Of a stretch of 64,000 bases of DNA, positions 1 through 52,527 are shown piece after piece. A program made the position numbers and the translations under genes. The stretch's first letter is position 1, and every line of letters begins with the position of its first letter. The stretch covers positions 1 through 64,000 of the forward strand of contig CM000151.3 in NCBI GenBank assembly GCA_000004695.1, read 5' to 3'. This DNA is from Dictyostelium discoideum (taxonomy: Eukaryota). The notes beneath the pieces are model-generated. The model was not told the DNA's origin. It saw only the letters and a list, made by a program, of their open reading frames with translations, and searched no databases.

Positions 1-100
1 NNNNNNNNNNNNNNNNNNNNNNNNNNNNNNNNNNNNNNNNNNNNNNNNNNNNNNNNNNNNNNNNNNNNNNNNNNNNNNNNNNNNNNNNNNNNNNNNNNNN
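1..100. other. assembly gap (run of 100 N)
   Basis: Literal n run at the window start. Confidence 0.99.
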
Positions 101-355
101 TGAATATTGGTGAGAGTTTTATGTTTTGGTTGTTGTGGTTTAGTATTCCTATTCCGTTGCCTCTGTTGGTTGCGCTAATGATGGAGCCAGGAAATAGCTG
201 GTGTGCTTGTGTTGCGTCGGCGTTGAGTTCATTGACTATGGTTATTGCCAATGAGTTTGGGGGGGATTGGGATTTGATAAAGTCTGTTTTGTTTTTGAAG
301 GAGGTGTCAGTGCCCCAACCTCTGACATTCCATTGGTTGATTTTGATTACTACCA

Positions 356-1609
356 TTATGAGATGATATCGATCTCCTCTTGGGAGTCGTTTAGCTGCGG
401 TTTGGATGGTGAAGGGTAGATACTCTCTATGAAGCTCTCAATGATTCCTTTCCTTTCTTTATTGACAGGTGTCTTAGGGGTGGATGGGATGTAAGGGTTG
501 CTTCTGTTTATTGTTGGTGAGAGTTGGGTGACCTCGTTGTTTGAGTGGATTTCCTCGTTCTTGCGTTTATGTGATGGAGGGATGTTTGGTGTCTTCTCTC
601 TGTTTTCCGAGGATGAATGGATGTTAGTGCTCGTTTTGTTGGCATTGTCTTTTTGGATGGCGTTGGATGTTGTGGTAGTGGTTGTGGTGGGTTTGACAGA
701 TTGAGATTCTGCTTGGTTTTTGGGGGGAAGAGGTTGAGAGGATTTTTTTGATTGGGCTCTTTTCTCTTGGGTTGATTGTTTATCAGACTTATTGTTTGCT
801 GGGTTGTTTGTTTGTTGTTGTGGTTTTGGTTGAGAGGATTTGATTGCTATCCTGTTTTGGATGTTGGGAGGATCATCTGTCATCTCATCTTCTAATGGTT
901 CTTCCGTGTTGTTTGACTCTACTTTCTTATTTTTCTTTTGTGAGGAGTAGGTTTTGGTGGCCGTTCTGATGGTAAAGTTGGCGATTTCTGTATTGTGTTG
1001 GCCAGATTTCATTTGATCGCCTATTTTGCATTCTATTAGACCGAATACTAGGAGGTGGTCGGTGGAGTATATAGTATGGTATATTGCATAGGGTATTTCT
1101 TCTGCAAAGGCAGTTTTGATGAGGGCATCCACTATTCCTGCCTTTTCTCTTGGAATTCTTACTCTTCCTGTGAGGACGTGGTAGTCTCTACTGGAGGTGA
1201 TGAAGGTTCCCAATTTGCTTCTATCTCTAATGATATTTAGGAGAGATTGTTCGTTTTTAATCATCAGGTGGATCGTTTTTCTAGTTCCTTTGCCTATGTA
1301 TATCTTGTCGATTGGGATATCGTAGTTTGAGAGTGTTTTTCTCATTTCTTCTAACCCCATGAGATCCATTTTGGGGAATTCGAGTGTAATTGGGTAGAAT
1401 CCGTTGTTTTTCTCGTAGGTTGAGAGAGCAGTCATGTTCAATATGGTCTCGCAGTATTTGGAGATGTCTTTGAGGCCTATTGATAATTTGGGGTAGGTCT
1501 CCTTTATCTCTGCTGTTTTTGTGGAGAATTCCTTAATGAAGTTCTCTGATGCCTCGTCCATATGGGTGGAGGGGTTGGCCATTTTAGCCGCGTCTGCGTA
1601 GGAATTCAT
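356..1609 (-). CDS. retroelement ORF1-like protein (putative TRE-family tRNA-targeted non-LTR retrotransposon; the element body runs leftward into the gap)
   Basis: 417-aa ORF with locally raised G+C compared with the AT-rich flanks. An ordered N-terminal ~230 aa is followed by a basic K/Q/T/S-rich low-complexity tail, as in non-LTR ORF1/Gag-like proteins. It sits ~150-250 bp from the 3' side of a tRNA-like sequence with a B-box-like motif, the known niche of Dictyostelium TRE3-type elements. Family not verifiable without a search. Confidence 0.4.
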   Translation of the reverse strand: MNSYADAAKMANPSTHMDEASENFIKEFSTKTAEIKETYPKLSIGLKDISKYCETILNMTALSTYEKNNGFYPITLEFPKMDLMGLEEMRKTLSNYDIPIDKIYIGKGTRKTIHLMIKNEQSLLNIIRDRSKLGTFITSSRDYHVLTGRVRIPREKAGIVDALIKTAFAEEIPYAIYHTIYSTDHLLVFGLIECKIGDQMKSGQHNTEIANFTIRTATKTYSSQKKNKKVESNNTEEPLEDEMTDDPPNIQNRIAIKSSQPKPQQQTNNPANNKSDKQSTQEKRAQSKKSSQPLPPKNQAESQSVKPTTTTTTTSNAIQKDNANKTSTNIHSSSENREKTPNIPPSHKRKNEEIHSNNEVTQLSPTINRSNPYIPSTPKTPVNKERKGIIESFIESIYPSPSKPQLNDSQEEIDIIS

Positions 1610-1794
1610 CTCGATGGGATTCCTTTGAATCGGCGATTTGGTAAATTAGATCTGTAGATCGTGGTGGATTGGTGATTTTTTTTGAAAGATTGGTTAAAAT
1701 TGACCGAGATTAAGGATAGAAAAGGATGAATTACTTTTCACGTGTATCTTGTATCCTCTTGATCGCGGTGCGGTTTTTTTTGATCAAGGTCCTG

Positions 1795-1810
1795 AGTTCG
1801 AATCCGTTAT
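1795..1810. promoter_or_regulatory. extra B-box-like motif (GAGTTCGAATCCG) ~55-70 bp beyond the 3' side of the tRNA-like sequence
   Basis: Near-match to the pol III B-box GGTTCGANTCC. Dictyostelium tRNA genes frequently carry an ex-B box ~40 bp downstream. Confidence 0.3.
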
Positions 1811-1865
1811 TTAACGGATAAATTTTTTAAAATTTTTTTTTTAATTTTTCAAAAATTACCCAAAA

Positions 1866-1937
1866 GGGATTCGATCCCCCGACCCTCTATCAAAGGGTAG
1901 TCTCATCAACCATTACACCATTTGATTGCTTTGATGA
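1866..1937 (-). tRNA. tRNA-like sequence (possible tRNA gene or pseudogene)
   Basis: Minus-strand read contains TGGTGTAATGGTT (identical to the D-arm region of tRNA-Gln/Glu-type genes), a perfect 5-bp anticodon stem ACCCT/AGGGT with 7-nt loop TTGATAG, and a B-box-like GGGGGATCGAATCCC. A fully paired acceptor stem could not be built by eye, so it may be a degenerate or truncated copy. Confidence 0.3.
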
Positions 1938-2040
1938 AAAATTTAAAAATGATAGAATATTTTATCCCCATTTTTTTGTGCTAAAATTAGATCTTTTTTA
2001 TTAAAAACCTTAAATTTATGTTTAAAGGAAATTTAAATTC

Positions 2041-2345
2041 ACTTTAAATCTACTTTTAATCTACTTTAAATCCTATTTAAAATTAATTTAAAATAAATTT
2101 TAAAGGTATTTTTAAATATCTTAAAAATTATCTTAAAAATTACCTTAAAAATCACCTTTAAAATCACCTTTAAAATCACCTTTAAAATTGCTTAAAAATT
2201 TATTTTAAAGCAAATTTTAAAGGCATTTTTAAATATCTTAAAAATTACCTTAAAAATTACCTTAAAAATGAATTTTTTAAACGCGGCTTTAAATTCAATT
2301 TAAATCCAATTTAAATCAACTTTTCTTTAAATTTGCTTTAAAGGT
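2041..2345 (+). repeat. TTTAAA-rich ~300 bp module, copy 1, ending GCTTTAAAGGTGCATTTTTCTTTGCTGTGTAG
   Basis: Three same-orientation copies (2041-2345, 5150-5465, 6545-6915) share a conserved ~40-bp 3' end and a degenerate (a/c)CTTTAAA(A/T) tandem body. Possibly LTR-like or a non-LTR 3' module; two copies are followed by A-runs and TTGGCGCAAA. Confidence 0.6.
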
Positions 2346-2511
2346 GCATTTTTCTTTGCTGTGTAGTACATAATCTTTATATTTTCTATTTAGATTATTA
2401 CTATTATTTTTATTTCTTAAATAATTTTTTATTTCATTTATTTTTGATTGTTTCATTTTTGGGGAATAAAATAAAATTGTTTCGAAACAAAAAAATAGAA
2501 AAAAATAATTG

Positions 2512-2567
<56 letters not shown>
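2512..2567 (+). repeat. poly(A) run of 56 A followed by TTGGCGCAAA
   Basis: Direct count. May be a retroelement poly(A) tail or a PBS-like TGGCGC motif. Confidence 0.8.
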
Positions 2568-2570
<3 letters not shown>

Positions 2571-2781
2571 GCGCAAACTAAATTTTTTTGTTATAAAAAA
2601 ATAAATAACAAGCAAATAACTGAATAAAATTGGTTTTTTATTGTTCTGATTAAATAAATTGTTTTTTAATTTAATTATAAAAAAAAAAAAAATTTAGTGA
2701 ATTTTTACACTATGTATAAACAGTGTATTTTAGAGTAAAAATTGACTGCCGTTTAGAAAGCGAAATTTCAAAAAAAATTCC

Positions 2782-4464
2782 CTAGAACAAAAGGTAATAT
2801 AATATTGATCTATTCTCTCTTCCTTTCCTTGTTTTATTTGCAAATAGTGAAATTGATGGTTTTGGTTTGTTATCTATTATTTTTGCATTTTTTAAATTAT
2901 TTAAAAAATTTGCAATTTTATTTTTATATTTATCAAAAATGTAATTTAAACATCTTTGTGCGACACCTAATAAAATATTATGTAAAATGTCTGGTTGTGT
3001 TTTTAAATAATTAATGGACAAAGGTTCGACCCACCCTCTGTCCACACCTTTGATACCAATATCTTTTGCTTTTTTTTCCCATACTTTTTTTAATTCTATA
3101 TCAGCATTTAGTTCAGCATAATTTGGTTTGGTGGAGTGAAAATTTGTAATATCTTCTTGTTTTCTTAATGTACCTGATTTGCAAATAAATAAACCATCTC
3201 TTGGTTTGTCACATGTGTGACATGCATATTCATTTGAATTATGTCCATTAAGTTTACACGATGCTCTAAATTCTGGAATATCCATTGTCAGTCCAAACGG
3301 TACAACATCTATTTGTTCATTTTCAATAATTAAATTAAAGCCATTACCAATAAAAGATGAAAACAATGCCCTAATTGTTTGATGAAAATTAAGTAACCAA
3401 TCATTTGGTACTACAAATAATAATAATTTATTATTTTTAAATTCATTTCCAATATAATTTTCTATATCCAGCATTATAGTATAATCTTTCTTGTTTTGAC
3501 ACTGCATACTATCAGTGAATATTCTAAGTAAAACAATTTTATTTTTATTTTTATTTTTTAAATCTTTAAATTGTTGACCACTTTTATAATTTGTATAAAT
3601 TCCAGTTTCAAAATCTGTATCAAAATCTATTCTTTCAAAAAATTGCTTTTTATTTAATAAAGTTTCTAATACTTTTTTAATTTCAAAATAAAAAATTGAG
3701 TGATCATAATTTTTATTTATAAATGTTTCTCCTTTTATTTGAAAATCTTCCATAAATAATTTATCCATATATTGAGGTGTGTATCTTATTTGATTTAAAT
3801 TGGTTTTATTTTTGTCAATAAAACTTTTAAATTTTTCAAGTAGCTTTAAACTTATTGAGTTTTCAATTCCCAACATTAAAAATTCAATTTCAGTTTCATT
3901 TAATTTTTTTTTTGATTTTTCATTATCTAAATTATTATTTAGATTATTATTTATTGGTTCGTTTTGAGCATTTTCATTTTCATTATTTTCATTATTTTCA
4001 TTATTAATGTTTGCTTCATTTTCATCTATTCTAATTTCATTGTTTTCATCTTCACTATGTACCAACCCAATTATATCATGATTTTCTTCATTATCAATTG
4101 TTTGATTATTATCATTATTTTCATTATTTTCTTGATAAAAAATTTCATCTTGGTTTTGGTTACATAAATGTTTACATGGGTCATCTGGATCATTTGTTGG
4201 ATATTTTATTTTTTCACCAGTAATATCCATTAATTTTTTATAAAAGCTATCTCTTTTTTGATTATTTGTAATAATTTTATTTTGTTCATTTTTACATTTT
4301 TTGGTGTTGAAATGTCCATTTACATCATAAAATTGTTTATAAGAACGGTAATATGCAAGACAAAATGGACATATATTTTTATGCATAATATAATGAATAA
4401 TAATATTTTTAAAATTCTTTAATTTTTCTCTGCAATTAATGCATGATATGTTATTTAAATTCAT
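2782..4464 (-). CDS. hypothetical 560-aa protein with Cys/His-rich zinc-finger-like N- and C-terminal segments and an Asn/Glu-rich low-complexity core; possibly encoded by a repeat element
   Basis: Long ORF embedded between module copies 1 and 2. Contains CINCREKLKNF..H..MHKNICPFC and YACHTCDKPRDGLFICKSG motifs. No recognisable transposase or RT motifs seen by eye. Confidence 0.4.
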   Translation of the reverse strand: MNLNNISCINCREKLKNFKNIIIHYIMHKNICPFCLAYYRSYKQFYDVNGHFNTKKCKNEQNKIITNNQKRDSFYKKLMDITGEKIKYPTNDPDDPCKHLCNQNQDEIFYQENNENNDNNQTIDNEENHDIIGLVHSEDENNEIRIDENEANINNENNENNENENAQNEPINNNLNNNLDNEKSKKKLNETEIEFLMLGIENSISLKLLEKFKSFIDKNKTNLNQIRYTPQYMDKLFMEDFQIKGETFINKNYDHSIFYFEIKKVLETLLNKKQFFERIDFDTDFETGIYTNYKSGQQFKDLKNKNKNKIVLLRIFTDSMQCQNKKDYTIMLDIENYIGNEFKNNKLLLFVVPNDWLLNFHQTIRALFSSFIGNGFNLIIENEQIDVVPFGLTMDIPEFRASCKLNGHNSNEYACHTCDKPRDGLFICKSGTLRKQEDITNFHSTKPNYAELNADIELKKVWEKKAKDIGIKGVDRGWVEPLSINYLKTQPDILHNILLGVAQRCLNYIFDKYKNKIANFLNNLKNAKIIDNKPKPSISLFANKTRKGRENRSILYYLLF

Positions 4465-5149
4465 TTTGTTTGCTGGCTGGAAATTAAAAATAATATTTTT
4501 TTTTTTTTTTTTCCTCGAGTTTTTACGTTTTTTTTTTTTTTTTTTTTCATTTTATTCAAATTTTAGCATTATAGCAAGTAGATATATGATTTAGTACTTA
4601 GAATTTTATATTTAGAGGGATATACCCCATTTTCAAAAAATGACGGGGAACCTATGACCCTGTCTATACCTTTTTCTTTTTAAAATATTAAAAAAAAAAA
4701 CTATAAAATCTGCCCAATTAATTGTAAAACTACACAAATGCAATAATATACATGTGCACTCGTTAATTGTTTATTAATTATAAAAAATAAAAAATAAAAA
4801 ATCTTTTTTTATATGTATGTTTATACTTATAATATAAATATGCAAAACAAATAATTAAATTTTTTTTTTTTTTTTTGATATTTTTCGCTTTTTGAAATGA
4901 GAAGTAAAATTTAAAATAAAATAATATAAAACCCAAGGCAACTGAAACACTTATTTATTATTAATTAATAAAAATAATAATAATAGAATTCAATTGCCAC
5001 TGAAACAAATAAATAAAGAATTAAAATTAATTTGGTTATCTTTTTAGTTGTTTTTTTTTTTTAATTTTCTTAATTTTTTTTTTTTTTTTAATTTTCTTAA
5101 TTTTTTTTTTTTTTTTTAATAAATTTGAAACAAATAGTGTAAAAATTGA

Positions 5150-5465
5150 TTTGAAATGTATTTAAAATGCATTTAAAATGTATTTTAAAAAATATAATTA
5201 ATAAAAGCTTAAAAAAGGATTGATAAGTAATTTTAAATTACATTAAAAATAACTTTTTTTAATTTATTATAAAGTGATTAAAACATTATTTAAAAACCGC
5301 TTTATAATAAATTTAAAAGGTCATTTTTAATGTAATTTTAAATGACCTTAAAAATATCTTTAAAATTACCTTTTTAAAAAGCAAATTTAAAGCCAATTTA
5401 AAGCAAATTTAAATTGTATTTGCTTGAAATTGGCTTTAAAGGTGCATTTTTCTTTGCTGTGAAGT
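5150..5465 (+). repeat. TTTAAA-rich module, copy 2, ending GCTTTAAAGGTGCATTTTTCTTTGCTGTGAAG, followed by TTTTGGCGC and an A-rich tract
   Basis: Shares the conserved 3' ~40 bp with copies 1 and 3. Confidence 0.6.
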
Positions 5466-5640
5466 TTTGGCGCAAAAAAAAAAAAAAAAATAAAATAAAA
5501 AAAAAAAAATAAAAAAATAAAAAAAAAAAAAATAAAAAAACTTAAATAGAACTAATAATCAAATAAAAGATAATAATTTAATAAACTTTATTTGTTTTTT
5601 GAAAAAAAAAAAAATTTAGGGTCAGTGATTTTTTTTTTTT

Positions 5641-5735
5641 TCACTACGCTACTGTAGTGAAATTAAATAATAAAATTCACTACGCTACTGTAGTGAAATT
5701 AAATAAAAAAATTCACTACGCTACTGTAGTGAAAT
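5641..5735 (+). repeat. three tandem copies of a ~32-bp unit containing the hairpin TTCACTAC-GCTACT-GTAGTGAA (8-bp stem)
   Basis: Exact repeats read directly: TTCACTACGCTACTGTAGTGAAATTAAATAATAAAA x3. Confidence 0.75.
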
Positions 5736-5743
5736 TTTATTGA

Positions 5744-6097
5744 AAATTCCCTACAACAAATGGTAATAGGATGATTCATGTGGATGAAATTAAATCATTT
5801 ATTGGAGAAGACAGAACATTATTCAGTAAAAGAAACAAAAAAACCCACATTCCATTGGAAGATGAAATTGAAAAGGTGGTTAACAAAAGATGTAGAACTT
5901 ATGGAACTGGTTCCAGAATAGAATATTTAATTAGATACAAGAACTCAAGCGAAGACAACGATATGTGGGTACCAAAACATTATTTGGATGAGGTGCCACA
6001 GCTAATTAAAGAATTTGATGACAAATTATCATCAGAAGGGGTCAGGAACGAAGATAATTTTAAGATCCATAACAAAAGGTTACAAACCATCGCATAA
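5744..6097 (+). CDS. small chromodomain protein (~108 aa from ATG at 5771), likely derived from a chromovirus (Skipper-like) integrase C-terminus or a domesticated copy
   Basis: Chromodomain signature EIEKVVNKRCRTYGTGSRIEYLIRYKNSSEDNDMWVPKHYLDEVPQLIKEF (Y..W.G..-to-W.P..L pattern). Open frame begins at 5744 inside a sequence homologous to 2771-2800. Flanked by the repeat modules. Confidence 0.5.
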   Translation, partial: KFPTTNGNRMIHVDEIKSFIGEDRTLFSKRNKKTHIPLEDEIEKVVNKRCRTYGTGSRIEYLIRYKNSSEDNDMWVPKHYLDEVPQLIKEFDDKLSSEGVRNEDNFKIHNKRLQTIA

Positions 6098-6110
6098 AAT
6101 ATTATTCAAT

Positions 6111-6200
6111 TTCGGATATTTTGTGTACCATTAACGTACCATTAACGTACCAATAACGTACCAAATTCGTACCCAATTTTTAATCAATTATGTACCAATT
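6111..6200 (+). repeat. degenerate ~11-bp tandem repeat (GTACCATTAACG / GTACCAATAACG / GTACCAAATTCG ...)
   Basis: Five to six head-to-tail units immediately 3' of the chromodomain ORF. Confidence 0.6.
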
Positions 6201-6303
6201 TTAAAAAAAAAAATACAGAAAGGGATATAAACAATACTTGAATTAATATACGATAATTATAGAATTAATATAAAAAAATAATACATAATAATACAAAAAA
6301 AAT

Positions 6304-6358
<55 letters not shown>

Positions 6359-6544
6359 GTAAAATTTTCAAAGAAAAAAAAAGAAAAAAAAAAAAGATAA
6401 TATTTTATTAGAATCCTTTACCAATCTTGTCAAGAAGGGGGACATGTAATGAATATTACATTTTATAATAAATAAATAATAATAAATAATAATAATAAAT
6501 AATAAATAATAATAATAAATAATAAATAATAATAACACAGCGAA

Positions 6545-6915
6545 GAAAAAACCACCTTTAAAGCAAATTTAAATTTAATTTAAAGCGAATTTAAAGTCCT
6601 AAATTAAAGCTAATTTTTAAGGTAATTTTAAAGGTAATTTTTAAGGTTACTTTAAAATATTATAATTTTTAATCATATTTTTAAGGAATTTTAAAGAGCA
6701 TTATAAAGGTAATTTTAAAGGGCATTTTAAAGTTAATTTTAAAGAGCATTATAAAGGTAATTTTAAAGGTAATTTTAAAGGTCATTTTAAAGGTCATTTT
6801 AAAGGTCATTTAAAAAATTGCTTTTAAATTAATTTTTATGTGACTTTTTTATAGGACTATAAATCCACTTTTAATTAAATTTAAAGTTGCTTTAAAGGTG
6901 TAATTTTCATCGCTG
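6545..6915 (+). repeat. TTTAAA-rich module, copy 3, ending GCTTTAAAGGTGTAATTTTCATCGCTGTGCAAG
   Basis: Shares the conserved terminus with copies 1 and 2. Followed by a short moderately GC-rich coding-like stretch (6915-7160). Confidence 0.55.
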
Positions 6916-7299
6916 TGCAAGACAACAAAACTCCAACTCAAATCAAAGAAACCAATCAAAGAAAAGAAAATCAAGAAATCAAAATACTTCAAGTGATGAT
7001 GATGAACTTGATCTTAGTTTACAAATTAAAACAACTAGATCAGGAAGAAAAGTTACACCCAAGAGATTATAGTCCACCTCTGAGCCATAGCTAGCCTAAA
7101 GAAGGAAGGTGTTAGAGACTCAAAACTAAATTAATTTAAAGTTAGTATGAGCTCAACAACATAACAAATTCGCGCATCTCATATAAAAATATTTCATTTA
7201 ATTTTAATTTTTATTTTTTAATTGATATTAAAAAAAAAAAAAATGAAAATATTTTCAAAAAAAAAAAACTTTTTTTGTGAAAGGATTATTTATTTTTTT

Positions 7300-7870
7300 A
7301 TAATTGGAGTTAATTATAAATAATTCAATTATTCACTGAGAGATCTATTAAAAATGAATTTAAAAAATAAAAAAAAATAAAAAAATAAAAATAAAATAAA
7401 AATAAAAAAAAAATAAAAAAAAATAAAAAAAATAAATAAAAAAAAATAAAAAAATAAAAAAAAAAAAAAAAATAAAAAAAATTTATGTTTTTTTAATGGA
7501 CCATTCAGTGGATAATTGAATTAGTTATAACTCGGCATATTTTAAAAAAGATCGAGTTATCCGGAAAAGATCAATCTTTTCGCGAAAAAATTTTCATTGG
7601 CCATATTATTTTTTTTTTTGAAGTTCCTTTTTTCCAAGTTCATTTTTTTTTTTTTTTATATTTTCTTTATTTCTCAATAACTACATACCAAATTTAATTC
7701 TACAATAGGTCTTAACAAATATTGTTTAATATTATTTAAAATTTTTGATTTAAATAATGCGTTTTATTAAAAAAAAAAAAAACTTTTCGAAATAGCTGAA
7801 TTTATTCCAGGATAACTCTATCTTTTTAGAAAATGTCGAGTTAATTATAATTAATTCAATTATTCTCTTG
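7300..7870. repeat. cluster of a ~30-bp motif (CGAGTTAATTATAATTAATTCAATTATTC) in + / - / + orientation (7308, 7498-7540 inverted, 7838) plus inverted CGAGTTATCCGG / CCAGGATAACTC pair
   Basis: Motifs compared by eye. Lies ~250 bp upstream of the lsg1 start. Possibly MITE-like or a regulatory element. Confidence 0.4.
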
Positions 7871-8122
7871 TATGCCCGTTGGAAAAAAAAAAATTTTAAT
7901 ATCCGCAATTGAATTATGTTGCAACAAGTATTTGTTAAAATTAAATTAAAAAATATTTTAATATTTTTGTTTCTCGTTAAACGATTCACATAATTTTTTT
8001 ATTTTTTTTTTTTTATTTTTTTTTTTTTTTAATTTTTTTATTTTTTCAATTTTTTATTTTTTTGCGAAGTTTTTTCGTTTTTTTTATTTTTTTATTTTTT
8101 AGTTGAAAAAATATTATATAAA

Positions 8123-10189
8123 ATGGTAAAGGGTAATAATAAGCCAACAAAGTTAGGTGATACCTTAATTAAATCAAGAAATAAGAAACTAGGTAGAACA
8201 TTCAATGAACAAACCATTGGTGTATGTAGTTTAATTTTTAATAAATAATAAATAATAAATAATAAATAATAAATAATAAATAATAATAAAATAAAATTTA
8301 TTAAAATTTTAAAATAATTATTAGATGTTTACAACAGATATTGATCCAAAAGAAGAAAGAAAGAAATTAGTATCAAATACAGATACAGGTAATAATTTAG
8401 AGAATTTTTTAGAGATAACATCGTTAGAACAAAAAGTATTTGAAAGTGAGAAACAAAATGTAGTAGTTATAAGTAAAACATCATCTACAGTATTATCAAA
8501 AGAAGAGAAAGAGAAAAAGACGAATGATCATCAAAAACTTATGGAAAAACATAGACTCTATTGGAATTCATTGACTATTCCACGTAGACCACAATGGAAT
8601 GAAAATACCACAACCGAAGAATTGTTAGAATTGGAGAAAGAAGTATTTTATCATTGGAGAAAAGGTATTGCAAAGTTGGAAGAGGAACAAGGTTTATTGG
8701 TAACACCATTTGAAAAGAATGCTGAAGTTTGGAAACAATTGTGGCGTGTTGCTGAACGTTCCGATCTTTTAGTACAAATTGTTGATTGTAGAAATCCATT
8801 ATTATTTAGATGTCCAGATTTAGAGAAATACGTCAAAGAGATCAATGTTAACAAGGTCAATTTACTCTTGGTCAATAAGGCTGATTTACTTACAAAGTTA
8901 CAAAGAAAGAAATGGGCAAAATATTTCGAATCTGAAGGTGTAGAGTTTAGATTCTTTTCAGCTCATAAAGAACAAGTACGTATTGAAAAACAAAGACAAT
9001 TACAACGTTTAATCGAAGAGGGTTCCATTGATCATGAACTCTTTGAACAAGAGGAAAAGAAAAGAAAAGAACAATTGGCTGCAGCATCCATTCAATTAAC
9101 ACCAGAGGAAACTCTTGAAGATTTAAAGATTAAAATCTATAATCGTGAAGAGATTTTAGAAGAGTTTTTAAAACTTCAACCAAAACCTTTGGCTGATAAT
9201 CGTTATAATAATCGTGTTGTCGTTGGTTTAGCAGGTTATCCAAATGTTGGTAAATCTTCAACTATCAATGTTTTATATGGTGAAAAGAAAGTTGCCGTCG
9301 CTGCAACTCCTGGTAAAACTAAATATGTTCAAACCATTATACTCGATGATGAAATTGTTCTATTGGATTGTCCTGGTTTGGTTTTTCCAACACTTTCAAC
9401 TTCAAAAGCAGATTTGGTTTGTAATGGTTTACTTCCAATCGATCAATTACGTGATTTCATTTCACCTGTAGATTTGATTTGTGAACGTTTACCAAGATCA
9501 CATCTAGAGGAAATCTATCGTGTTGGTATTCCAAAACCACAAGAACATGAACCACAAGATAGACCTCCAACCGCAAATGAATTCTTATCTGCCTATGGTT
9601 ATATGAGAGGTTTTCGTACTGTTCATGGTGCCCCAGATCAATCTCGTGCTGCTCGTATCGTTTTAAAAGATTTTGTAAATGGTAAATTATTATATTGTCA
9701 TCCACCACCAGGTTTTGATTCTATTAAATTTCAAAGAAAAACAATAAAAGGTAGTAATTTAATTATTAATAATGAAAATGAATTTGATAATAATAATACT
9801 ACTACAACTACTACTACTACAAATGAAACTCAACATAAAATTTCACATTTTGGTTCAACAAGTGATGATTTAACAGTTACTGGTAAAAAAGTTACATATG
9901 ATTTCAATAAAGATAATGAAGCAAAATATATTTATCAAGATCAAGTTTCAGCTTTAACAAAAGATAAATCAAAGAAAAAGAAAAAAGTTATAAATTTACA
10001 AAAAGAACACATTGATTCAAATAAAAAAGATGCTTATACTCGTACTCAATTCCTTCATTCAACTACTCCTGAAGCTGCTAAATTAGAAAATATGTCCAAA
10101 AAAGAAAAAGAAGAAAATTCAAGAAAACGTTTAGAACAAATTAAAGCTTTAAAACAACAAATTTTACAACAACAACAACAACAACAACC

Positions 10190-10233
<44 letters not shown>

Positions 10234-10250
10234 CTGATGAACAAAATTAA
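8123..10250 (+). CDS. large-subunit GTPase 1 (Lsg1, circularly permuted YRG-family GTPase); join(8123..8221, 8325..10250)
   Basis: Exon 1 MVKGNNKPTKLGDTLIKSRNKKLGRTFNEQTIG matches the Lsg1 N-terminus. Intron GTATGT..TTATTAG at 8222-8324. Exon 2 has permuted G motifs, LLVNKADLL (G4) before GYPNVGKSST (G1), plus DCPGLVFP and a YGYMRGF box, closely matching LSG1. Confidence 0.85.
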
Positions 10251-51336: not shown

Positions 51337-52527
51337 TCAAATAATGATAATAATAACAATAATAATAATAATAATAAAAAAAATGGAGAGTTATTTTTAA
51401 AGGTATTTAGAAATAAAATTTTAAGGTCAAAAATATTTTCAGAAGTTTCAAAAGAATTTAAATATGGTATATTTAAATATGAACAAATTAAATCAGTTGA
51501 TTGGATGTTAACAAATGATTATATTGAATTATTAAAATATAAAGTTCAACGTGGTGAACAATTAGTATTTTATTTTGATTGTTATTATAATTCAACAGAA
51601 TTTGAATTATTTAAAAAAATTAATAACGATAAACAATTTTATATTAATTTATTTAAAAACTATCATTTTAATTTTATTCAAAAATCAACATACAGTAATA
51701 ATCAAAATAATCAAAATAATAATCAAAATAATAATCAAAATAATAATCAAAATAATCAAAATAATAATTGTAAAACAACAAAAATAATAATAACAAAAGA
51801 AATTCAAAATTCATCAGAAGTATTAAAATTAAATATTAATTTTATAATTGAAACTGATTGTAAAGTTGCATTAAAAGTATTAATAAATCATTTTAATTAT
51901 GATGTTATGAAAAATGAAAATATTTTATATGATTCAATAAAGAGTTCATCATTTAAAATCATTAAATACCTTTTAAAGTATTATAAATTTAAAGTTGATA
52001 GAAATTTATTATATAGTCAAGTATTAAAAGACAAAACATTTAATTTAAATAAAAAAGTTCAATTCATTATTGATGTTTTAAAAATACCACCACCAATATC
52101 AACTTCACCAGAAATTTTAAATCAATTAAATAATTTCAAATTATTTGAAACTCATTTAAATGATTGTATGTATAATCAATCATTAGAAATTTTAATTGAA
52201 TCATGTAAAACTATTTCAATATTAGAACCAATTTTAAAATTTAATAATAATAATAATAATAAGAAAAAAAAAGAAAAAGAAAAAGATAAAGAAATTATTA
52301 AAACAAATCAATTTATTAAATTAATTGATATTATTAATTTTAAAGAAAATAATATTGAATATTTAAATGAAAAAGTTAAAGATTTTTCAAAAGATATTGA
52401 ATTTGTAAAACAACTTTATAGACAATTTATAACTTTTTCAAAACCAATTAATGTTAGAAAATATTTAAACATGTAAAAGTTTTTATAGATTAAAATATTG
52501 TATTATATTACCNAAAATTTATCAACC

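Follow-up and report, generated by a model that had tools for sequence, protein, structure and literature searches.

Nested transposable elements of known kinds at the start of a 64-kb window of Dictyostelium discoideum chromosome 2

The stretch of DNA analyzed here, hereafter the window, comprises 64,000 nucleotides of Dictyostelium discoideum AX4 chromosome 2 and opens with an assembly gap. Its first 7 kb consist of five separate mobile-element families of known kinds, nested within one another, and a new composite element is unsupported. Our reading, to which we give a probability of about 0.85, is that positions 1-7160 form the right-hand edge of a large transposable-element nest, made by elements inserting successively into each other. 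It rests on direct observation of where the elements begin and end, of target-site duplications, of sites both empty and filled, and of protein domains and copy families. An initial annotation of the sequence had described a repeat graveyard of Dictyostelium type, and that description stands: the features that it listed all exist at or near the positions assigned to them, and they make up a nest of elements of known kinds. Its suggestion of an undescribed composite is superseded, since nested insertions with matching target-site duplications account for the arrangement and make such an element needless; we find no evidence for either a composite element or a domesticated gene. The features are listed below, and genomic loci fetched for comparison are cited by number (L001, L003 and so on).

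1-100, no strand: assembly gap, a run of 100 N
101-1785, minus strand: 5' part of a TRE3-type non-LTR (long terminal repeat) retrotransposon, cut by the gap; 5' untranslated region (UTR) at 1610-1785, open reading frame (ORF) 1, and part of the ORF1-ORF2 spacer
356-1609, minus strand: TRE3 ORF1, intact, 417 aa, within a 90%-identity cluster of 37 Dictyostelium proteins
1787-2363, plus strand: module 1, positions 184-760 of a 760-bp miniature inverted-repeat transposable element (MITE), with ends CACAGCRAAGAAAAAACCACC... and ...GGTGCATTTTTCTTTGCTGTG; the TRE3 5' end stands in place of the first 183 bp
1794-1805, minus strand: ex-B-box-like motif GGATTCGAACTC, 51 nt downstream of the tRNA-gene relic
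1857-1929, minus strand: tRNA-gene relic inside the MITE, with upstream motif TTTCATCAAA (1930-1939), A-box-like TGGTGTAATGG, B-box-like GGATCGAATCC (1867-1877) and a T5 run (1851-1855)
2364-2789, minus strand: Tdd1, transposase-proximal end of a Tdd-4/5-type transposon; inverted repeat at about 2485-2789 with outer terminus ...CCCTAGAACA at 2789; A50 run at 2517-2566, followed by TGGCGC at 2568-2573
2790-5461, minus strand: 5' 2.7 kb of the autonomous DNA transposon D, terminus CACAGCAAAGAAAAATGCACC read from 5461 on the minus strand
2782-4464, minus strand: the 'ZnF-like ORF', DDB_G0294296, 560 aa; N-terminal 557 aa of the D protein, with the last three codons and stop supplied by the Tdd1 end
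about 5150-5461: module 2, the subterminal repeat region of D
5462-5759, minus strand: Tdd2, another Tdd-type element, represented by its inverted repeat, whose outer terminus ...CCCTACAACA is at 5759; TGGCGC at 5468-5473, preceding an A-rich run; three 36-bp hairpin repeats at 5640-5747
5760-6535, plus strand: 3' end of a Skipper-2-type LTR retrotransposon, with integrase C-terminus and chromodomain, 3' UTR, A-run, polypurine tract and the first 91 bp of the LTR
5771-6097, plus strand: the 'orphan' chromodomain ORF, XP_628751.2, 108 aa; last ~105 residues of a Ty3/gypsy Pol, Pfam Chromo E=1.7e-8
6125-6173: 11-bp repeats in the Skipper-type 3' UTR
6432-6442: polypurine tract AAGAAGGGGGA
from 6445: LTR start TGTAATGAAT...
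6536-6917, plus strand: module 3, a MITE of 382 bp from the same family, complete with both inverted ends, inside the Skipper-type LTR
6918-7033, plus strand: remaining 116 bp of the Skipper-type LTR, ending ...AAAACA
7034-7160, no strand: flank of the Skipper-type LTR, slightly richer in GC

The modules, transposon D and the Tdd-type ends

The three modules lie in one orientation, are rich in TTTAAA, and share a common end, ...GCTTTAAAGGTG.A.TTTTC.T.GCTGTG, at 2363, 5461 and 6917. A 28-mer search allowing up to three mismatches found exact ends at 2363 and 5461 together with the inverted left end of module 3 (6536-6563, minus strand), where chance would give 0. The 577-bp unit at 1787-2363, which joins the tRNA-like sequence to module 1, is present in at least six copies in L003, at 98-100% identity and in both orientations. 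When these copies are extended they form a 760-bp element with inverted ends, CACAGCRAAGAAAAAACCACCTTTAAA... on the left and ...TTTAAAGGTGCATTTTTCTTTGCTGTG on the right (pattern CACAGC...GCTGTG), flanked by variable 2-bp target duplications (TA, TA, GC, AT, TT, TT and TA), and one of them (L003 8192-8950) occupies a site that is empty at window positions 4654-4658. It is from the inverted ends, the 2-bp duplications and the empty site that we identify the unit as a MITE. The right end of module 3, in turn, closely matches that of a D copy in L016. The modules had been taken for retroelement parts or LTRs; with inverted ends and 2-bp target duplications, they are instead the terminal or subterminal repeats of one cut-and-paste DNA transposon family, made up of an autonomous element of ~5 kb and its MITEs. 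An explanation of all modules by one known family, for which TRE3 had been the example, thus holds to the extent that they form a single family with an adjacent ORF, but this family is a DNA transposon and not TRE3.

Over its first ~2.5 kb, a complete 5,034-bp copy of the autonomous element D (L016 4218-9251) is 86-91% identical to the window copy, and it shares the inverted termini, is flanked by a TG target duplication and contains two ORFs (814 and 275 aa). The window copy is closer still, at 99.4% identity, to L003 16012-17604. DDB_G0294296 had been presented as a ZnF-like ORF on the strand opposite to a module, and it proves to be a truncated ORF of the D family; the D protein has ~761-814 aa when intact, and relatives extend past the point at which the window copy is cut. 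We describe its product as the truncated putative transposase of the MITE's autonomous partner. Homologues of the D protein were found in Dictyostelium only and form two subfamilies ~50% identical to each other. Pfam gave no match for the 560-aa ORF, for the intact 761-aa D protein or for 13 family members, and a profile search of PDB sequences with the D protein returned 0 matches. An AlphaFold2 model has a mean predicted local distance difference test (pLDDT) score of 33.9, too poor for use; the order of secondary structure near D328 and D405 in it is compatible with an RNase H-like core, which we do not count as evidence. The CAC... termini, the 2-bp target duplications and the conserved motifs ...FTDG... 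and ...MDIPEF... give a hint of the CACTA/Mirage/Chapaev group, unaccompanied by a sequence or structure match.

The DNA transposons of D. discoideum are described as three families (Tdd, DDT and thug), with transposases reported to be unlike any known (PMC5633606). Since D is not integrase-like, it is not Tdd. An assignment to thug-S was rejected because the published thug-S microRNA (miRNA) sequences are absent from D and the MITEs and present in L001. By elimination, then, D and its MITEs are most likely DDT-A/B and DDT-S. They resemble DDT in being a family of DNA transposons whose protein is unlike known transposases, in having two protein subfamilies ~50% identical, and in having an ORF-less member of ~0.76 kb; the difference is that D has been assigned to DDT by elimination only. 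In L001 itself, positions 20880-21030 carry the thug-S-derived miRNA_can_D3-5p and -3p in several inverted copies, which places a thug-S element next to the TRE cluster there.

The stretches behind modules 1 and 2 (2568-2789 and 5468-5759) are homologous to each other from TGGCGC to ...AAAATTCCCTA(C/G)AACA, and they belong to Tdd-type elements. The partner of the Tdd1 inverted repeat is found at L003 6596-6907 (85.6% identity). The Tdd1 terminus breaks the D ORF exactly at 2789/2790, and in a newer D. discoideum assembly (GCA_054883475.1) the other half of that ORF adjoins the partner repeat (L003 6596-6907/6908), and the insertion is flanked by the 5-bp target duplication CCTTT. An HHCC integrase-like ORF extends leftward from Tdd1 in L007, the same locus in the newer assembly. 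The Tdd2 repeat, into whose inner side D is set at the junction 5461/5462, is 94.6% identical to L003 4696-4944. That sequence belongs to an inverted pair (L003 3204-3456 and 4696-4949) which encloses HHCC and rve fragments, has the termini TGTTGTAGGG...CCCTACAACA, and is flanked by the 5-bp duplication ATATA. Related loci gave an Integrase_H2C2 match (E=4.8e-9) and a weak rve match in ORFs that lie outside the window; a protein search with the Tdd-type integrase fragment gave no named matches.

These properties are those described for Tdd-4 and Tdd-5, which have TG...CA ends, 5-bp duplications, inverted repeats of 260-297 bp and a transposase resembling a Gypsy integrase (PMC2836005). We took TG...CA termini together with inverted repeats of 145-300 bp as a mark of membership in the Tdd-4/Tdd-5 (Ginger2/TDD) group, and found both here. 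The likeness extends to the 5-bp duplications, the inverted repeats of ~250-310 bp, and the ORFs with HHCC and DDE integrase-like features in related copies; in contrast to a complete element, the window holds the inverted repeats only, and neither copy is assigned to Tdd-4 or to Tdd-5. As the two window copies are just ~70% alike, they may represent two subfamilies. The 36-bp hairpin unit varies in number, from three in the window (5640-5747) to two at each of L003 3230-3290 and 4866-4930. Two independent Tdd sites (2790-2799 and 5760-5769) have nearly identical flanks, AAAGGTAATA and AATGGTAATA, by target preference or coincidence; the flank of a third site, ATATACACCA, differs.

The hexamer TGGCGC had been read as resembling a primer-binding site. 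It sits ~290 bp inside a Tdd-type inverted repeat and is therefore not one, and the A-runs and hairpins belong to the same kind of repeat. Nor is it the outer Tdd terminus, a possibility that we considered and rejected: target duplications and interrupted ORFs place the terminus at the ...CCCTACAACA end. These observations bear directly on the idea that the modules are parts of a retroelement, either TRE C-modules or LTRs followed by a primer-binding site, within an undescribed composite retroelement. The agreement of the modules in orientation and terminus, the presence of TGGCGC 6-205 bp behind two of them, and the retroelement ORF1, chromodomain and polypurine tract nearby would all fit such an element. 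We nevertheless regard it as extremely improbable, because inverted ends and 2-bp duplications mark the modules, which also have MITE derivatives and a partner that is autonomous but lacks reverse transcriptase; TGGCGC at L003 4696 lies within a Tdd-type inverted repeat that no module adjoins; the boundaries 2789/2790 and 5759/5760 are clean transposon insertion junctions; and elsewhere the pieces are found apart or in other combinations.

The chromovirus remnant

To the right of Tdd2, the window contains the 3' end of a Ty3/gypsy element. The chromodomain ORF is 52% identical to residues 1355-1456 of P0030, a protein of 1457 aa with reverse transcriptase, RNase H, integrase, SH3 and chromo domains, and an exhaustive HMMER search found its best relatives in Dictyostelium species. 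It begins with IHVDEIKSF, the motif located behind GPY/F in integrases of this kind. Homology to a copy in Dictyostelium dimigraforme (L006) begins exactly at window position 5758, the outer edge of the Tdd repeat, and the two copies share the polypurine tract and LTR start, AAGAAGGGGGA(c/t)A / TGTAATGA. When module 3 is removed, the LTR is rejoined to ~207 bp (91 + 116), and the alignment to the D. dimigraforme LTR ends at 7033; the LTR of Dd_Skipper-2 is 208 bp long (PMC5006619, Table 1). The supposed coding-like tail at 6915-7160 is accordingly the rest of the LTR split by the MITE (6918-7033) and its flank, and is not demonstrably coding.

Comparison of the chromodomain with that of HP1 places D31 in the position of a tyrosine, Y56 in that of a tryptophan and S59 in that of a tyrosine, so that aromatic cage residues 1 and 3 are lost. 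Loss of the first and third cage residues is what has been reported for Skipper-2 chromodomains (PMC5006619). The initial annotation had proposed a Skipper-2-type chromovirus as the source of the chromodomain, and the Pfam Chromo match, the match to a Pol C-terminus and the LTR of ~207 bp bear this out. The element shares with Dd_Skipper-2 (formerly DGLT-P) its nature as a Ty3/gypsy chromovirus with a chromodomain at the integrase C-terminus, the two lost cage residues and the LTR length; it is also a degenerate copy, as reported for all D. discoideum copies. It differs in that only the last ~1.3 kb remain, the 5' LTR and polypyrimidine tract being absent from the window, and in having no adjacent tRNA gene. 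In Dd_Skipper-2 the 5' LTR is followed by a polypyrimidine tract and not by a primer-binding site.

We considered whether the 108-aa ORF might be a host gene domesticated from a chromovirus, as had also been proposed. The ORF is intact and annotated (XP_628751.2), and an ORF of 111 aa in D. dimigraforme matches it at 70% identity over the full length. Even so, domestication seems to us very unlikely. The ORF opens within the integrase C-terminal motif, the corresponding GPF motif can be seen immediately before the D. dimigraforme copy, in a different frame, and the same polypurine tract and LTR start stand behind both copies. The genes flanking the D. dimigraforme copy are not syntenic within 10 kb on either side; the Tdd end lies 11 bp upstream of the ATG, hence no ancestral promoter is left; the closest relatives are full-length Pol proteins; and the cage has lost two of its aromatic residues. 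Because it starts in an integrase motif and is followed by a polypurine tract and an LTR, we treat the chromodomain ORF as a relic and not as a domesticated gene. A gene model of 196 aa (P0025; L007 10001-11290, equivalent to window 5771-7070) splices this relic to 'exons' from the MITE repeat (NFKGHFKG...) and the LTR, and is an annotation artefact.

The TRE3 insertion and the tRNA-gene relic

A gap-truncated ORF from a tRNA-gene-targeted element had been recognized at the left edge, correctly: the element is of TRE3 type, and its ORF1 is identical to that of copies whose ORF2 has an RVT_1 domain. For comparison we used the other genomic copies of the exact window ORF1. Copies in L001, L004 and L005 are 99.9-100% identical to the window element and share its 5' end (window 1780-1785). 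In other copies ORF2, of 1059 aa with RVT_1, lies downstream of ORF1, and in the window it would be beyond the gap. TRE3 elements integrate ~100 bp downstream of tRNA genes in the same orientation (PMC5006619). We counted tRNA distances for 11 other non-tandem copies, leaving tandem ones out; 10 of these 11 have a real, co-oriented tRNA gene upstream (at ~55-135 bp in nine and ~305 bp in the tenth, L015), and the eleventh (L009) has a tRNA remnant only. Head-to-tail tandem TRE3 copies behind a single tRNA gene were seen in L004 and L005 (5' ends at 9826 and 15111-15124 in both, with a third from ~20023 in L005). The window element thus resembles TRE3 (TRE3-A or TRE3-B) in its family's two ORFs, the reverse transcriptase in ORF2, the element length of ~5.3 kb and the integration of other copies downstream of tRNA genes, as well as in the poly(A) tail and ~11-bp target duplication of a copy in L003. 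It differs in its target, a tRNA relic within a MITE and no bona fide tRNA gene.

The target was originally described as a tRNA-like sequence with an ex-B-like box. A tRNA-derived relic and the box are indeed present, although neither ARAGORN nor Rfam recognizes a credible tRNA gene. ARAGORN at default settings called no tRNA gene in the 64-kb window, and Rfam gave no tRNA at E<=1 within 1-9000, only chance miRNA-like matches to palindromic repeats. When 181 bases were searched alone, the Rfam tRNA model scored 13.6 bits at 1857-1927 on the minus strand, against a threshold of 29 bits, and ARAGORN at a lowered threshold of 80% made one weak call, 'Ser(tga)', at 1857-1927. It is on account of the empty ARAGORN result and the subthreshold Rfam score that we file the sequence as a tRNA-gene relic only. 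The folding of the tRNA-like RNA is no better than that of shuffled sequence (z = 0.21). Comparison with 14 real Dictyostelium tRNAs pointed to no source tRNA, giving at most 48/73 identities.

The layout, however, is that of a Dictyostelium tRNA gene, with the T5 run beginning 1 nt past the 3' end of the relic. The ex-B-like motif, compared here with the ex-B boxes downstream of real tRNA genes, also pairs with the B-box region as an imperfect inverted repeat. All copies of the 760-bp MITE contain the tRNA-like core (window 1787-1935), at 97-100% identity; the autonomous element D lacks it. The motif TTTCATCAAA, or a close variant, stands directly 5' of several D. discoideum tRNA genes (L004, L005, L008 and L012) as it does of the MITE relic.

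Two TRE3 insertions are associated with this relic. Both are in the canonical orientation. The window TRE3 lies 70 bp downstream of the relic; the other TRE3, in L003, has entered another copy of the MITE (copy f), 93 bp downstream of the relic, with a target duplication of ~11 bp and with both halves of the MITE present. The two TRE3-MITE junction sequences differ, and the insertions are therefore independent events. ARAGORN found no real tRNA gene in the 21-kb L003. Based on these two cases, one of which abuts an assembly gap, the data suggest that the relic is still recognized as a target of RNA polymerase III (Pol III) type, and TRE3 would have been attracted to the MITE because the relic may still bind Pol III factors.

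The newer assembly is colinear with window positions 1787-13569 at 99.6% identity, and leftward of this it contains more nested copies of Tdd, D and the MITE. At the same locus, however, it has a full 760-bp MITE from which TRE3 is absent (L007 5852-6611). The discrepancy at the junction (window 1700-1790 versus L007 5852-6040) could be a strain-specific insertion polymorphism, a placement problem caused by the gap, or the use of another identical MITE copy.

An opposing view is that the relic is inert and that its closeness to the window TRE3 is a coincidence or an assembly artefact. The score of merely 13.6 bits and the rejection by ARAGORN would be expected of an inert sequence, as would a fold no better than shuffles, and the window junction both abuts the gap and is missing at the newer-assembly locus. 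We think it unlikely, though by no means negligible, given that a second, independent TRE3 lies in copy f of L003, with its own target duplication, that the dissimilar junctions exclude a mis-join of one site, and that ARAGORN reports a real tRNA gene in neither the window nor L003. TRE3 elsewhere is almost always ~100 bp downstream of tRNA genes (this analysis; PMC5006619), and the upstream motif, A and B boxes, T5 run and ex-B-like box have kept their normal arrangement in the relic.

We therefore put forward, tentatively, a model in which the tRNA cassette captured by the MITE (upstream motif, terminator and ex-B box) may still assemble Pol III factors, such that each MITE copy would serve TRE3, and possibly other retroelements that target tRNA genes, as a mobile landing pad. 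If this is true, a DNA transposon spreads retrotransposon target sites and seeds nested clusters. A functional relic would link the spread of a DNA transposon to retrotransposon targeting, and would provide a natural case on which to test how few Pol III signals suffice for TRE3. The arrangement recalls tRNA-derived short interspersed nuclear elements (SINEs), and tRNA genes as landing sites, in that a dispersed repeat has A and B boxes and receives tRNA-targeting retroelements at the canonical distance. In contrast to tRNA-derived SINEs, however, the carrier is no retroposon but a MITE that moves by cut and paste and has inverted ends and 2-bp duplications; its tRNA part is internal and degenerate.

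Order of insertion and flanking sequence

The boundaries described above suggest an order of events. The oldest element would be the Skipper-2-type chromovirus, of which the integrase C-terminus with its chromodomain, the polypurine tract and the 3' LTR survive. The Tdd-4/5-type transposon Tdd2 would then have entered 11 bp upstream of the present ATG of the chromodomain ORF and, in a separate event at about the same stage, the 382-bp MITE would have entered the Skipper-type LTR. D, a DNA transposon of ~5 kb with CACAGC...GCTGTG ends and 2-bp target duplications, presumably followed by insertion into the Tdd2 inverted repeat. The second Tdd-type element, Tdd1, would next have entered the D ORF and cut it at codon 557; a 760-bp MITE of the D family would have entered Tdd1, and TRE3, as the last arrival, that MITE, 70 bp downstream of its tRNA-gene relic. 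In this scheme no part requires a cellular function, and the pattern is that of a compact genome in which the insertion of elements into one another has been tolerated.

Several points weigh against this reconstruction. The window TRE3-MITE junction is, as noted, next to the gap and absent at the same locus of the newer assembly. The names DDT and Tdd-4 versus Tdd-5 rest on published features and elimination, and the end of the LTR at 7033 on one cross-species local alignment. Finally, no tRNA gene called by ARAGORN in the window adjoins the Skipper-type LTR, whereas published Skipper-2 copies are often located 8-23 bp downstream of one. This last trait is found in 4/8 published Dd_Skipper-2 copies and is not universal, so that the missing tRNA gene does not bar membership.

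A nested cluster by an assembly gap, built from families catalogued in D. discoideum since 2001, is routine. Its practical consequences are that two annotated 'genes', DDB_G0294296 and the chromo domain-containing protein XP_628751.2, are transposon fragments (we found no mention of the DDB gene identifiers in the papers and supplements searched), and that the reference and newer assemblies differ here by one TRE3 insertion. The lone lead of wider interest is the MITE-borne tRNA relic, struck twice by TRE3.

Beyond the LTR, positions 7034-7160 have no second copy among the fetched loci, and neither ARAGORN nor Rfam finds a tRNA gene there. Rightward of the nest, the first gene of ordinary appearance is a 641-aa ORF at 8325-10250, with the GTPase-like motifs GYPNVGKSS and DCPGLVFP and homopolymeric T and Q tracts; the protein collection has no exact match to it, and introns in the annotated gene are the probable reason. 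The window is internally repetitive at ~12.9-13.5 kb, and contains a second 100-N gap at 13570-13669 and a single N at 52513. In translation, positions 24459-24800 resemble the D. dimigraforme locus L006 at two places (~11.4-11.6 and ~14.1-14.5 kb), and are probably another repeated element.

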